A stretch of 64,000 nt of DNA from a virus, in IMG/VR virus record IMGVR_UViG_3300018022_000003, positions 63,427-127,426 of that record, one strand, 5' to 3'. Position numbers and translations under genes: made by a program. Below the pieces are notes generated by a model, which saw only the letters and a list, made by a program, of their open reading frames with translations, searched no databases and had not been told where the DNA came from. Positions 58,528 through 63,813 of the stretch are shown here, piece after piece. Numbering within the stretch: the stretch's first letter is position 1; each line of letters begins with the position of its first letter.

Positions 58528-59259
58528 ATGGAGTCAACACCCTACATGAACTCGGTGACCTCTGCCCGTGCCCTCCTCCTGGGGGAGGAAGAGGCGCTGG
58601 TAGGTGCCACCACCATAAGCCTGGAGACCCAGCAGGACCTCCAGGAGGACGACGTCTTCACCTACATCCAGGAGAACTTCGTGTCCTTCATAAGGATGCT
58701 GAGGTACCTGTCCCCCGAGGACCAGGACATGCTCCTGTCCTACTACCTCCTGGGGAAGACCCAGACCACGCTCGCCTCCATATTTAGGAGCACCCAGACG
58801 GTCTGCTCCTTCCGCATCAGGATGGCGGTGCGGGTTATCGGGGCCTTCCTGCTCTTCGGCGAGCCTACCGTGGAGGTGCTGGCCAGGGTGCTGGGCAAGG
58901 CCGGGCTGGAGGAATCGCTCAAGGGGGGCCTGTCCAGGGCGGTAATAGAGTATGCGAGGTGCCGCTCCTTCCAGGAGGTGGCCGACGTCCTGGGGCTGCA
59001 CCGGCCGGACGTGCGCCGGGCGATGAGCCGGGCGGCACGGGCGCTCATGGGTTCCAAGGACAGCCGGGAGGCCGCCTTGGCGGCATGGATACACTCCCTG
59101 GTGGACAAGTCCAACCCCGTGGGCCCCGGCTACAGCAAGCGGAAGATGCAGAAGGAGGGGCATATCTACCGCAAGGACCCCGACATCCTGGGGGAGTTCT
59201 CCGCCAGGATAGAGGACCCCGCCTTCGACTCCCTGTTCGTTTCGAGGGCAAACAGGTAA
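58528..59259 (+). CDS. transcription regulator with two sigma70 region-4-like HTH domains
   Basis: LSPEDQDMLLSYYLLGKTQTTLASIF and SFQEVADVLGLHRPDVRRAMSRA. Confidence 0.7.
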   Translation: MESTPYMNSVTSARALLLGEEEALVGATTISLETQQDLQEDDVFTYIQENFVSFIRMLRYLSPEDQDMLLSYYLLGKTQTTLASIFRSTQTVCSFRIRMAVRVIGAFLLFGEPTVEVLARVLGKAGLEESLKGGLSRAVIEYARCRSFQEVADVLGLHRPDVRRAMSRAARALMGSKDSREAALAAWIHSLVDKSNPVGPGYSKRKMQKEGHIYRKDPDILGEFSARIEDPAFDSLFVSRANR

Positions 59260-59794: not shown

Positions 59795-60631
59795 ATGGGC
59801 CTCAGGCACGGCAGCCTCTTCAGCGGCATCGGGATGATTGACTACGGCCTGGAGCTTGCGGGCTTCAGGACCGCATGGCAGGTAGAGATAGACCCCTACT
59901 GCCAGGCGGTGCTGCGCAAGCACTGGCCGGGGGTCCCCCTCTACGGGGACGTGAAGGAGTGCGGGAGTGGGAGAGAGCACGAGCTTGAGCGGGTTGACCT
60001 CGTCAGCGGGGGGTTCCCCTGCACAGACATCAGTATCGCCGGTCACGGGCCGGGAATCGGCACCCCCGACAACCCGACGAAGAGAAGTGGCCTCTGGTAC
60101 GAGTTCCACCGAATCGTGCGGGAGATGCGCCCTAGGTGGGCAGTCATTGAAAACGTGGCTAGACTCCTGCATACGGACGATGGTGCCGGGGTCATCTTTG
60201 ACATGGAGAAGGAGGGATATGCGTGCTGGCCCTTCCTACTGGGAAGCCATGTCATCGGAGCGCCCCACGAGAGGCGGAGGGCTTGGATTGTCTGCCGTGA
60301 CAACCACTCCCACGGCGACTGCGATACTGGTGCAGGAGTGGGACAGGGGCAGCTTCCCGATAACCTCCGGCGGGCGTTTGAGGAAGCGGTCGAAAAGGAA
60401 CATCACTGGAAGTGCGAACTGGCCGCAGGAGATGATGGCACGCATGGTCCTCCAGAGGAACCCGAGCCTGCTGCCTACAGCCGAGGCGTGCGAAGAGTTC
60501 ATGATGATTCCCACTGGGTGGACCGACTTAGGTGCTGCGGGAACAGCGTCATATGGTTCTTCCCCGCAGTCATCGGAGCCTACATCGCCCAGGCCGGGGA
60601 AGGAGGGGAAGATGGAGACAGAGGAGACTAG
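59795..60631 (+). CDS. DNA (cytosine-5) methyltransferase
   Basis: SLFSGIG (I), GGFPC (IV), ENV (VI), RRR.WIV (VIII), DRLRCCGNS (X). Confidence 0.9.
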   Translation: MGLRHGSLFSGIGMIDYGLELAGFRTAWQVEIDPYCQAVLRKHWPGVPLYGDVKECGSGREHELERVDLVSGGFPCTDISIAGHGPGIGTPDNPTKRSGLWYEFHRIVREMRPRWAVIENVARLLHTDDGAGVIFDMEKEGYACWPFLLGSHVIGAPHERRRAWIVCRDNHSHGDCDTGAGVGQGQLPDNLRRAFEEAVEKEHHWKCELAAGDDGTHGPPEEPEPAAYSRGVRRVHDDSHWVDRLRCCGNSVIWFFPAVIGAYIAQAGEGGEDGDRGD

Positions 60632-60950
60632 GACGGGGGCAGAGGCAGGGGGGCAGGCAGCGCCGCCTGCGCCGGCCGGGCAGGCCCAGGCAGTGCCCAG
60701 GGCCAGGAGGCCGAGGGCCAAGGGGGAGTGGGCCTTCATCTCCAAGCGGGTCCTTGCCCGCCTCGACAGGCAGCCCAGCAACCTCCAGTCGTTGGAGAAA
60801 CGGCTGGTGGAGGTAAAGCATATAGTCAAGGAGGGGCTGACCGAGCAGGCGGAGCTGGAGGAGGCTATCGCAGCTTTCAAGGGCGTGCGTGCCAAGGGCG
60901 GCCCCCAGCCACCTGAGAGGCGGCCGGCAAAGGCCAAGACCCTGTCCTAG
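59967..60950 (+). CDS. overprinted alternative-frame polypeptide of the first C5-MTase, running into a downstream coiled-coil gene (own ATG at 60612)
   Basis: AAGGAG-7nt-GTG; LLPTAEACEEFMMIPTGWTDL resembles motif IX. Confidence 0.5.
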   Translation: MGESTSLSGLTSSAGGSPAQTSVSPVTGRESAPPTTRRREVASGTSSTESCGRCALGGQSLKTWLDSCIRTMVPGSSLTWRRRDMRAGPSYWEAMSSERPTRGGGLGLSAVTTTPTATAILVQEWDRGSFPITSGGRLRKRSKRNITGSANWPQEMMARMVLQRNPSLLPTAEACEEFMMIPTGWTDLGAAGTASYGSSPQSSEPTSPRPGKEGKMETEETRTGAEAGGQAAPPAPAGQAQAVPRARRPRAKGEWAFISKRVLARLDRQPSNLQSLEKRLVEVKHIVKEGLTEQAELEEAIAAFKGVRAKGGPQPPERRPAKAKTLS

Positions 60951-60957
60951 GGGCATA

Positions 60958-61839
60958 GTGAGAGTCTACTACAACGACAACGACAAGTTCTGCTGCGGGT
61001 GGGTGGAAAAGCTCATCGAGGCAGGGCTTGTCCCCCCTGGGGACATCGACGACAGGAGCATATGCGATATAGGGCCCGAAGAGGTCAGGAGGTACGACCA
61101 GTGCCACTTCTTCAACGGGATTGGGGGATGGCCCCTGGCCCTCCTCCAGGCAGGGTGGGGGGACAGGCCCGTATGGACAGGCTCGTGCCCGTGCCAGCCG
61201 TTCAGCTCGGCAGGGAGGAAGGAGGGGGTCAAGGATGAAAGGCACCTCTGGCCAGCCTTCTTCGGCCTCATCCAGGAGTGCCGCCCTCCAGTCGTGCTTG
61301 GAGAGCAGGTTGCGACAGCGGTTGGAAGGGGCTGGCTCGACATTGTACTCGGAGACCTGGAGGCGGAAGGCTACGCCTGCGGGGCGACCGTACTTGGCGC
61401 ACACAGCGTCGGCGGCCCCCACATCAGGCAGCGGATATACTGGTGGGGCGACAGGGATTTCAGGGTACCCTACCCCGCAGGCACGGGACTACAAGGGCCC
61501 GCAGGGGAGGGCCTACGAGACCAAGCGTGCGACCTGCTCGACGACGAGCAGGGTGGTCGGGAAGAAGAAGCAGCAGGCGCTCGACCTCCCGGCAGTGGCG
61601 CTGATGGTGGAGGGAGTGGGGCAGCGCTTCCCGGAGGCAAGGGTTTCTGGAAGGGCTGGGAATGGCTTCTGTTCCGTGACGGCACGAGGCGTCCAGTTGA
61701 ACCCGGCGCTTTCCCGCTGGCTCATGGGGTTCCCCAGGGAGTGGGACGACTGCGTGGCTACGGTAACGCTCTCTGCGTCCCGACCGCCAAGGCGTTCATA
61801 GGGTCCTACATGGAGGCCGTCAGCCCAGCAGTTCCCTGA
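60958..61839 (+). CDS. second DNA (cytosine-5) methyltransferase, phage YYN[ED]-type with displaced motif I
   Basis: YYNDND..G..DDRSI..QCHFFNGIG..WTGSCPCQPFS..GEQV..RQRIYW..LRGYGNA. Confidence 0.9.
   Translation: MRVYYNDNDKFCCGWVEKLIEAGLVPPGDIDDRSICDIGPEEVRRYDQCHFFNGIGGWPLALLQAGWGDRPVWTGSCPCQPFSSAGRKEGVKDERHLWPAFFGLIQECRPPVVLGEQVATAVGRGWLDIVLGDLEAEGYACGATVLGAHSVGGPHIRQRIYWWGDRDFRVPYPAGTGLQGPAGEGLRDQACDLLDDEQGGREEEAAGARPPGSGADGGGSGAALPGGKGFWKGWEWLLFRDGTRRPVEPGAFPLAHGVPQGVGRLRGYGNALCVPTAKAFIGSYMEAVSPAVP
61235..61801 (+). CDS. overprinted alternative-frame polypeptide of the second C5-MTase
   Basis: AAGGAGG RBS; YPTPQARDYKG and QLNPALSRWLMGFPREW. Confidence 0.65.
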   Translation: MKGTSGQPSSASSRSAALQSCLESRLRQRLEGAGSTLYSETWRRKATPAGRPYLAHTASAAPTSGSGYTGGATGISGYPTPQARDYKGPQGRAYETKRATCSTTSRVVGKKKQQALDLPAVALMVEGVGQRFPEARVSGRAGNGFCSVTARGVQLNPALSRWLMGFPREWDDCVATVTLSASRPPRRS

Positions 61840-62740: not shown

Positions 62741-63478
62741 CTAGTAGTTCTTCCAGAGGCACTCCACCTCGTCGGTATTGCTGAGCTTGTTCCGCTTCGG
62801 CACCCTGAGGAACGGCTCCCCGAGCGCCTCCAGGTAGGTCCTGTGCCCGTACTCGCTCAGCAGCCAGCGGAACCTGGCGCTCTTGAGCATGCCAATCATG
62901 CCGTCGTAGTCGAACCTGCCCTTCCTCCTCCCGTAGCTCCTTACGCTGCAATCCCGGTAGGGGGGGTCTAGGTAGACGAAGCTGTCCGGGCCGAGCTGCT
63001 CAAGGTGCAGGTCGTGCCAGTCGAGGGCGGTGACCACCACCCCCGTCCTCTCCATTATCTCGTAGCACTGCCGGACCTTCTCCCTGTATGTGCCAGGGAG
63101 CAGCGGCTTACGCACCGGCCCCGAATCCCCGTAGGTCCCGGCATGCGAGCAGACATAGGGTTCAAGGATTGCCGCCCTCAGGGTGATGTGGCCATGGAGC
63201 TTCTTGTACTCCATGTACCTTCCGTACTCTCCGGGGAGGTCCCTCGGCAGCCTTACCCTCCCCCCGGACCTCCGGATGGCCTCGAAGAGCGGGGCGGTGG
63301 CTATGTCGTTGACATGATACTCCTCGAACTTCCACGGGGCGAGGGTACCCACGGCCCACAGGACGTTCCCCCGCCCTGCGAACGGCTCCGTGTAGGTCCT
63401 GGCACAGGGCATCTGGTCCACCAGCACCCTGGCCATGCCTGTCTTGCTGCCCGCATAGGGGAGGTTCGGAAGCCTCAT
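62741..63478 (-). CDS. DNA adenine methyltransferase (Dam/D12 class)
   Basis: YAGSK, TEPFAG.G, VNDI, YLDPPY. Confidence 0.9.
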   Translation of the reverse strand: MRLPNLPYAGSKTGMARVLVDQMPCARTYTEPFAGRGNVLWAVGTLAPWKFEEYHVNDIATAPLFEAIRRSGGRVRLPRDLPGEYGRYMEYKKLHGHITLRAAILEPYVCSHAGTYGDSGPVRKPLLPGTYREKVRQCYEIMERTGVVVTALDWHDLHLEQLGPDSFVYLDPPYRDCSVRSYGRRKGRFDYDGMIGMLKSARFRWLLSEYGHRTYLEALGEPFLRVPKRNKLSNTDEVECLWKNY

Positions 63479-63813
63479 CGCCTTCCCCCTGCCAAAACGT
63501 CATGCTCCCATAACACCACCACCCTCCAGCCCTTGGCCTCCAGGGCTAGCCTGGTAGCCTCGTCACGCTGGCGGTTCCGCCCTATCTTGGCCGCCCAGTA
63601 CTCCGGCCTGGACCTCGGGAGCTTGAAGTGGAGGGGGCAGCCGTGCCAGAAGCATCCGTGGACGAACACGGCTACCCTCTTCGACTTGTTGAGTCAGTCA
63701 GGCCCTCTCCCCCTGCTGTGCCTCAGGCGGCAGCCTGCGGCGGCCTCCGCAGCCTTTCGGGCAGAGGCCTCCAGCTTGGAGACGGACCTGAACTGCCTCA
63801 TGTCCAGGCTCAC
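63475..63813 (-). pseudogene. vsr: very short patch repair endonuclease with an in-frame TGA
   Basis: GPD*LNKSKRVAVFVHGCFWHGC..W..KI.RN..RD..GW.V...WEH; TGA at 63694-63696. Confidence 0.75.

Follow-up and report, generated by a model that had tools for sequence, protein, structure and literature searches.

Among the characterised DNA (cytosine-5) methyltransferases (C5-methyltransferases), M.AquI and M.EcoHK31I have been named as the only two-chain exceptions (PMC3404938). M.AquI (recognition sequence CYCGRG) is a two-polypeptide enzyme encoded by overlapping frames (PMC3404938), while M.EcoHK31I of Escherichia coli HK31 (YGGCCR) is composed of an alpha and a beta chain (Lee, Kam and Shaw 1995, as cited in PMC2836561 and PMC3404938). 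M.EcoHK31I needs both chains, its activity being lost when the starts of beta are removed by changes silent in alpha, and it works as two separately expressed chains (PMC2836561). Here we describe two neighbouring genes on the same strand, at positions 59795-61839 of a 64,000-nucleotide stretch of viral DNA (the window; positions 63,427 to 127,426 of IMG/VR virus record IMGVR_UViG_3300018022_000003), whose main frames both encode C5-cytosine methyltransferase cores and are overlapped by a second frame. We propose that each gene encodes a heterodimeric DNA (cytosine-5) methyltransferase, the two chains of which are read from one stretch of DNA, and we estimate the probability of this reading at about 0.85.

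Two main frames and the frames within them

The block is made up of the following reading frames (ORF, open reading frame; aa, amino acids):

59795-60631, + strand: alpha1, catalytic large-domain chain of the first enzyme (MTase1), 278 aa
59819-59833, 60011-60028, 60146-60154 and 60539-60550: motifs I, IV (PC), VI (ENV) and X (GNSV) of alpha1, which also has motif VIII
59967-60950, + strand: beta1, +1-frame ORF of MTase1, first stop at 60950
60889-61839, + strand: alpha2, catalytic chain of the second enzyme (MTase2), given as the longest ORF (from GTG 60889)
61108-61131, 61189-61206, 61300-61311, 61417-61434 and 61759-61773: motifs I, IV, VI, VIII and X (YGNAL) of alpha2
61121-61801, + strand: beta2, +1-frame ORF of MTase2, open from TTG 61121 and nested wholly in alpha2 (60889-61839)

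Both alpha chains exceed the curated cut-off of Pfam family PF00145 (22 bits) and have the catalytic Pro-Cys and ENV-type motifs. In each case only a part of the profile is matched: positions 3-166 of 324 by alpha1 (2.5e-34, 119.6 bits) and positions 66-161 of 324 by alpha2 (58.1 bits). Since the match of alpha1 is limited in this way, motif IX is absent from this chain, which also lacks a target recognition domain (TRD). The alpha scores against TIGR00675 lie below the cut-off of that model, because only half of the profile is matched. An initial annotation, made from the nucleotide sequence alone, had reported two tandem C5-methyltransferases, each with a second reading in another frame, and had noted that the main frames are devoid of a clear motif IX, which an overlapping frame supplies. 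These features were found at the places given, and the half-matches to PF00145, together with the motifs read from the +1 frames, bear out the second point.

In the PHROG database both chains are covered from end to end by phrog_363 (alpha1 at 6e-57, almost full length; alpha2 at 4.8e-64). A custom hidden Markov model (HMM) of the alpha family scores alpha2 at 4e-121, and a tblastn search with alpha1 gave matches in 1389 phage records. Over motifs IV-VIII the alpha-family profile also recognises M.HhaI (1e-18). The structure 3g7u (a methyltransferase of prophage CP-933R) was considered as a close member of the alpha family and rejected, as it is not close. Within the family (alignment A2) the core is conserved, the linker that follows motif VIII varies in length and sequence, and a C-terminal block is again conserved. 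Alignment with relatives makes GTG 60958 a more likely start of alpha2 than GTG 60889. The identity between alpha1 and alpha2 amounts to 32% and is restricted to motifs IV-VIII; judged by their sequences, the two enzymes represent different subfamilies, with no recent duplication, and therefore probably have different targets.

The most probable start of beta2 is ATG 61235, which is preceded by a Shine-Dalgarno run, GGAGGAAGGAGGGGG, at 61214-61228 and would give a product of 188 aa. This internal ribosome-binding site, as well as the string YPTPQARDYKG, had been pointed out in the initial annotation and could be confirmed; the latter, at 61466-61498, is a WPTP-type motif. Motif IX, QLNPALSRWLMGFPREW, is located at 61694-61744. 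The product matches phrog_1008 (3e-21) and phrog_31772 (8e-12), both labelled DNA methyltransferase, and is scored at 1e-82 by a custom HMM of the beta family. More than 448 protein homologues were found, which are 200-300 aa long and lack a Pfam domain. Their alignment (A1) is conserved exactly over the linker of alpha, where the WPTP-type motifs lie, and at motif IX. A comparison of the beta2 profile with solved structures, including the recognition domains of monomeric C5-methyltransferases, gave no match at the sequence level.

For beta1 there are two candidate starts, i.e. GTG 59967, behind AAGGAG at 59954-59959 (a pair noted previously and found again here, along with a motif IX-like string), and ATG 60219, behind GGAGAAGGAGGG at 60205-60216. 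Both the conserved recognition region and motif IX fall inside alpha1, at approximately 60294-60542, and the motif IX string, PTAEACEEFMMIPTGWTDL, lies at about 60474-60530. An exhaustive phmmer search with beta1 yielded 46 cluster representatives, five of them at E<=1e-30, among which the best is 81% identical (P0121). Some of these relatives are short proteins of the nested type. Three others (P0131, P0134 and P0140) are single-chain methyltransferases; their N-terminal half resembles alpha1, and behind motif VIII, before motif X, a segment like beta1 continues in the same frame, as it also does in the single-chain relative L241. This position indicates that the beta1 segment is the small-domain part of the enzyme. 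The earlier proposal that beta supplies motif IX stands in amended form: beta would supply the whole small domain, recognition region included. No Pfam or NCBIfam family was found for beta1, nor did it match the custom HMM of the beta2 family; it was linked to that family by hhalign only (82% probability, residues 38-108). It keeps every invariant column in the alignment of its close family (A3).

Conservation of the inner frames and predicted assembly of the two chains

In about 200 classified related loci (GC content 0.41-0.68, cultured phages included), motif IX is nearly always encoded in the +1 frame relative to motif IV. A scan of viral contigs for the beta2 type found at least 565 related loci. 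A set of 83 loci of this type (80 viral contigs and three phage records) was passed through a filter demanding an open beta frame plus an alpha frame with motifs IV and X. In the 78 loci that passed (GC 0.52-0.67), beta is open over 207-462 codons with alpha one base behind; the third frame is mostly closed in loci of this type. The close relatives of MTase1 are likewise nested in all classifiable cases (9/9 viral contigs and 23/23 metagenome loci, GC 0.43-0.67); the nine contigs measure 25-332 kb, five of them exceeding 140 kb. More distant relatives of alpha1 are found in cultured phages of Mycobacterium (Che9d gp80), Lactobacillus (Lc-Nu ORF40), Synechococcus (S-H1) and Bacteroides (BX788P2), where a nested +1 frame ends just before motif X (GC 0.47-0.58). 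These +1 frames match phrog_1008, that of Che9d gp80 at 4e-32 and that of Lc-Nu ORF40 at 2e-28. A scan seeded with these four phage genes found at least 341 loci, of which 80 were kept (GC 0.41-0.68): 69 are strictly nested, and in eight others motif IX is read +1 relative to motif IV.

This layout is rarely visible in existing records. A tblastn search with beta2 found matches in the +1 frame of annotated methyltransferase genes of cultured Klebsiella, E. coli and Xanthomonas phages. One Xanthomonas phage record annotates both overlapping genes; 40 E. coli genomes list the locus as one feature only ("DNA cytosine methyltransferase"), and the same holds for Che9d gp80 and Lc-Nu ORF40. One viral contig (L172, approximately 1400-2900) itself contains two tandem nested C5-methyltransferases, the second copy having an alpha frame broken around motif IV. 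The initial annotation had regarded stops within the inner frames of close homologues as a sign against its reading; the +1 frame is open in nearly all of the related loci examined.

Chance was assessed by shuffling synonymous codons with the alpha protein and its codon set fixed (2000 trials). An open +1 stretch at least as long as that observed arose in 0.05% of the permutations for alpha1 (P=0.0005), in 0.35% for alpha2 (P=0.0035) and in 0-0.55% for seven relatives of GC 0.47-0.58 (P=0-0.0055), i.e. P<=0.0055 in all nine genes. The similarity of +1 translations between relatives lies 5.5-10.8 standard deviations above the level expected as a by-product of alpha in the seven closer of nine pairs, and 2.5 and 4.0 above it in the two most distant ones. 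Conservation of synonymous sites, suggested earlier as a check, gave a result of the same kind, with alpha third positions constrained where beta is conserved. In the alpha2 family identity at third positions, 0.35-0.42 in the part upstream of beta, climbs to 0.55-0.73 across motifs IV-VIII and to 0.84 under motif IX of beta, where it equals second-position identity. A start of beta2 at ATG 61235 (residue 116) agrees with the place where the increase sets in (about residue 106-120). In the alpha1 family the third-position value under motif IX is 0.68, compared with about 0.37 at baseline, and the amino-acid identity of alpha is only 0.37 there.

It could be argued that the inner frames are not genes at all, being open by chance in GC-rich DNA (0.62-0.65) and similar to each other only through the conservation of alpha. 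In agreement with this, the +1 frame of permuted sequences still has a mean open length of 100-124 codons, the codons of alpha motifs I and IV dictate parts of the beta N-terminus, and the minus-one reading of a single-chain recognition region resembles the alpha1 linker largely as a by-product (P=0.058). However, the same frame is open in relatives with a GC content down to 0.41, beta is conserved precisely where alpha is a variable linker, third positions of alpha are as conserved as second positions under motif IX, and the seven closer pairs exceed the by-product level by the margin given above. This explanation, to which we would attach hardly any weight, is already contradicted by the permutation, conservation and third-position tests. 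Taking into account the many homologues, the open +1 frame in relatives, the constraint on synonymous sites and the similarity beyond a by-product, the view that the inner frames are real conserved coding frames under selection is well supported by sequence comparison.

The association of the two chains, for which a joint model of main and inner frame had been proposed as a further check, was modelled with residues 24-316 of alpha2 and 39-226 of beta2, each with its own alignment. The complex scored 0.92, compared with 0.34 for the best of three controls. In calibration, 58 of 80 solved complexes attained the mark, against 2 of 110 mismatched pairs; the counts are rough only, as the present runs relied on own alignments. 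Three runs share at least 76% of the contacts, and the partner is modelled with a pLDDT (predicted local distance difference test score) of at least 67. In the modelled complex motif IX of beta2 (198-204) touches motifs X (291-298) and VIII (177-178) of alpha2, and the WPTP region of beta2 touches His178 of alpha2. The model supports binding of beta2 to alpha2, falling short of a demonstration.

The following scheme is suggested by these observations. The main frame would give rise to alpha, the large catalytic domain with the S-adenosylmethionine-binding motif I, the catalytic Pro-Cys of motif IV, and motifs VI, VIII and X. From a start codon and Shine-Dalgarno sequence within the gene, ribosomes would read the +1 frame of the same mRNA, producing beta, the small domain, predicted to comprise an N-terminal helix-hairpin, a recognition region of the WPTP/TPTA type and motif IX. 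Beta would then dock on alpha, with motif IX placed against motifs X and VIII, forming a complete enzyme able to read and methylate a target. We infer that beta is translated, that a heterodimer is formed, that both of its chains are required, and that it has target sites and serves in anti-restriction.

The same DNA might instead specify a single polypeptide through programmed frameshifting, i.e. by a +1 shift after motif VIII into the recognition region and motif IX, and a return to the main frame for motif X. The order of motifs on the DNA (VIII, recognition region, IX, X) is canonical, related single-chain enzymes exist, and in M.AquI-like relatives such as L233 one +1 shift suffices. Such a mechanism would nevertheless require two opposite shifts here, it makes the openness of the alpha frame across the whole linker in hundreds of loci needless, and it leaves untranslated the conserved N-terminal part of beta, which overlaps motifs VI-VIII of alpha. 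M.EcoHK31I, moreover, functions as two separately expressed chains. We therefore judge frameshifting to be very improbable.

Several observations weigh against the heterodimer proposal. At the GC content of the window genes long alternative frames are commoner, and the P values of 0.0005 and 0.0035 are not astronomically small. A favourable score of the complex may reflect likeness to solved single-chain C5-methyltransferases instead of binding by this particular pair, because the chains are in effect the halves of a split methyltransferase. When folded alone, beta2 gives a poor model (pLDDT 55), which is as expected for a chain predicted to depend on its partner. It has also lost the upstream ATG common to most members of its family. 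In most relatives beta begins with ATG at about alpha residue 50-64. The beta2 frame has a stop at 61070-61072, where most relatives are open, and ACG at 61093-61095, where the 94%-identical relative P0001 has ATG; because of this loss we can only infer the start at 61235. As regards beta1, it has neither a PHROG match nor a tblastn match in cultured phages, and it lacks a stop codon of its own, the frame remaining open to 60950, 319 nt beyond the end of alpha1. Since no stop occurs before that position, beta1 does not lie wholly inside alpha1. The initial annotation had likened both genes to M.EcoHK31I, with its beta encoded inside alpha; full nesting of this kind is seen in MTase2 and not in MTase1. 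The extension of beta1 contains an additional frame:

60612-60950, + strand: small ORF of 112 aa, starting at ATG 60612 behind its own Shine-Dalgarno sequence, GAAGGAGGGG; same frame as beta1, no intervening stop

No Pfam family was found for this ORF. Read-through of the same type occurs in seven relatives (L088, L089, L237, P0121, P0122, P0124 and P0128); the others stop a few codons after motif IX. The tail of the beta frame in L237 is the same domain as that found after motif X in the single-chain relative L241.

The layout could be ancestral and real, with one of the window copies, more likely MTase1, no longer yielding a working enzyme. Besides the missing stop codon and PHROG match, beta1 reads TTPTATA in place of the TPTA-x-D type motif of the broad family, its motif IX has M-I instead of G-F, and phage loci with a visibly disrupted second copy are known (L172). 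On the other hand, beta1 retains all the invariant columns of its close family, P0121, its 81%-identical relative, has the same read-through tail, a feature common to several relatives, and alpha1 keeps all the catalytic motifs. The decay of one copy is regarded as unlikely, and a heterodimeric enzyme encoded by each of the two genes remains our preferred interpretation.

Nested, split and single-chain forms among relatives

Three architectures coexist among the relatives, i.e. the nested form (the majority), an M.AquI-like form (L233 and P0011) and a single-chain form (L241). In L233 (a viral contig, approximately 1300-2350) and P0011 alpha ends behind motif VIII, and the recognition region is joined by motifs IX and X in the +1 frame. 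L241 (1676-4012), from a metagenome-assembled genome (MAG) of Acidobacteriota, is a single-chain relative of MTase1 with 779 codons in one frame; L240 is of the same form, with one frame break. L238 was grouped with these two as a relative of MTase1.

In nested genes one piece of DNA encodes both the recognition region and, in the other frame, the linker of alpha1. In L241 two in-frame segments that flank the recognition region and motif IX resemble this linker (score 48, compared with 19.5 +/- 3.7 for shuffled sequences). The flanking segments of the single-chain forms L241, P0131, P0134 and P0140 correspond to the alpha-frame reading of the nested recognition-region and motif IX DNA. Moreover, motif IX of L241 is followed by DNA that repeats the motif's own DNA in diverged form, shifted by one base (local score 30, whereas 1000 shuffles gave 27 at most). 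A comparison of S1a DNA of L241 with the recognition-region DNA was marginal (P=0.047). The minus-one reading of the L241 recognition region was considered as a relic alpha frame and dropped, as its score did not differ significantly from the by-product level (89, simulated 68 +/- 13, P=0.058); the open length of this reading had P=0.35.

The flanking segments of L241 and the offset copy of motif IX suggest that single-chain forms could have arisen from nested ones by internal duplication. The nested form may be ancestral in a very large methyltransferase family of phages and prophages, with some single chains re-emerging by a duplication that unfolded the overlap. We put this forward tentatively, as a scenario slightly more likely to be wrong than right, because the test for a relic alpha frame failed. 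If true, the M.AquI-like, EcoHK31I-like and single-chain forms would be stages of one cycle of frame splitting and re-fusion. The coexistence of AquI-like, nested and single-chain relatives offers a tractable system for studying how an overlap originates and is resolved.

Genomic context and comparison with known enzymes

The 127-kb viral record (CheckV completeness 41%) carries a third C5 gene outside the window (G000:C1:52907-53767, equivalent to L235:608-1468). Its main frame has motifs I-VIII as well as X and matches phrog_363, while a 208-aa +1 ORF (L235:750-1376) has a classical motif IX, LTEEEWEALQGFPGGWT, at its end. In cultured phages the only, weak relatives of this gene are those of Brevundimonas jumbo phages. 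Close to the methyltransferase block the following genes were recognised:

58528-59259: 243-aa protein just upstream of the block, with a weak match to sigma-70 region 4 (PF08281, 27.7 bits)
62741-63478, - strand: D12-class N6-adenine DNA methyltransferase (PF02086, 8.6e-12)
63475-63810, - strand: vsr-like (very-short-patch repair endonuclease) frame, with an in-frame TGA at 63694-63696 just after G-P-D

Downstream of this TGA the vsr-like frame matches Pfam Vsr weakly, at 26.3 bits, below the cut-off of 27; the frame could be a pseudogene or subject to read-through. As the D12-class gene adjoins the vsr-like gene, the locus constitutes a cluster of DNA-modification genes. The two window enzymes, together with the third nested C5 enzyme and the Dam-like enzyme, most likely shield the phage DNA from host restriction, and their number suggests a heavy investment of the phage in evading it. 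The closest bacterial-genome matches to beta1 (L236-L241) all come from soil MAGs, five of six belonging to Terriglobia/Acidobacteriota. There are hints that Acidobacteriota may be the host phylum of the jumbo-phage clade.

In the literature on overlapping genes and phage cytosine methyltransferases, our search did not come upon a description of this family or layout. New here are the occurrence of two different nested subfamilies in tandem, with a third nested gene elsewhere in the same phage, as well as a beta1 frame devoid of its own stop and the existence of M.AquI-like relatives; some single-chain forms, judged from their sequences, seem to be secondary derivatives. With about 200 codons read in two frames of the same strand, these genes are among the longest conserved gene overlaps in DNA viruses. 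Hundreds of phage relatives retain the layout, mostly recorded as one gene, and its distribution covers phages of Actinobacteria, Firmicutes, Bacteroidetes, Cyanobacteria, Proteobacteria and probably Acidobacteria. A lone alpha chain is probably inactive, and heterologous tests and predictions of specificity for the family could therefore mislead.

The single-chain enzymes M.HhaI and M.HaeIII (PF00145) have the same catalytic core as the window alphas, but encode it in one chain and one frame, and the recognition domains of monomeric C5-methyltransferases show no detectable sequence similarity to beta. A structural model of the single-chain relative P0131 aligned with M.HhaI over about 170 columns (Foldseek E 7e-16), with the catalytic core aligned and the recognition region unaligned. 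Of the database families, phrog_363 corresponds to alpha (alpha1, alpha2 and the third alpha of the genome match it) and phrog_1008 to beta. The latter is matched by beta2, whereas beta1 matches neither, and the label of both ("DNA methyltransferase") is silent on the DNA that they share.

A second chain bearing motifs IX and X, which characterises M.AquI, occurs in neither window gene, whereas the relatives L233 and P0011 possess it. As motif X is encoded in the alpha frame, the split in the window genes is of the EcoHK31I type and not of the AquI type.

The likeness to M.EcoHK31I, which rests on published descriptions of that enzyme, extends to several features. In M.EcoHK31I, as in the window, alpha has motifs I-VIII as well as X, and beta, encoded in another frame of the alpha gene, has motif IX. 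Both window alphas have this set of motifs and lack IX, and in both betas the columns of motif IX are invariant or nearly so (A1 and A3). In the window, too, beta would start internally, and its N-terminal part is less critical. The chains of M.EcoHK31I are reportedly 309 and 176 aa long; those of the window are of similar size (278-316 aa for alpha and about 188 aa for beta). There are also differences. A beta nested wholly within alpha, as in M.EcoHK31I, is found in MTase2 and not in MTase1, although the conserved part of beta1 does lie inside alpha1. The recognition domain of M.EcoHK31I has been placed in alpha, while in the window the recognition-like region is part of beta and the region between motifs VIII and X of alpha is a linker. 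Furthermore, the window genes are orphan tandem phage genes, none of the neighbours assignable to a family having been identified as a restriction-endonuclease gene, whereas M.EcoHK31I belongs to a restriction-modification pair. Taken together, the comparison of motifs and frames supports the view that the two window genes fit the design of M.EcoHK31I.

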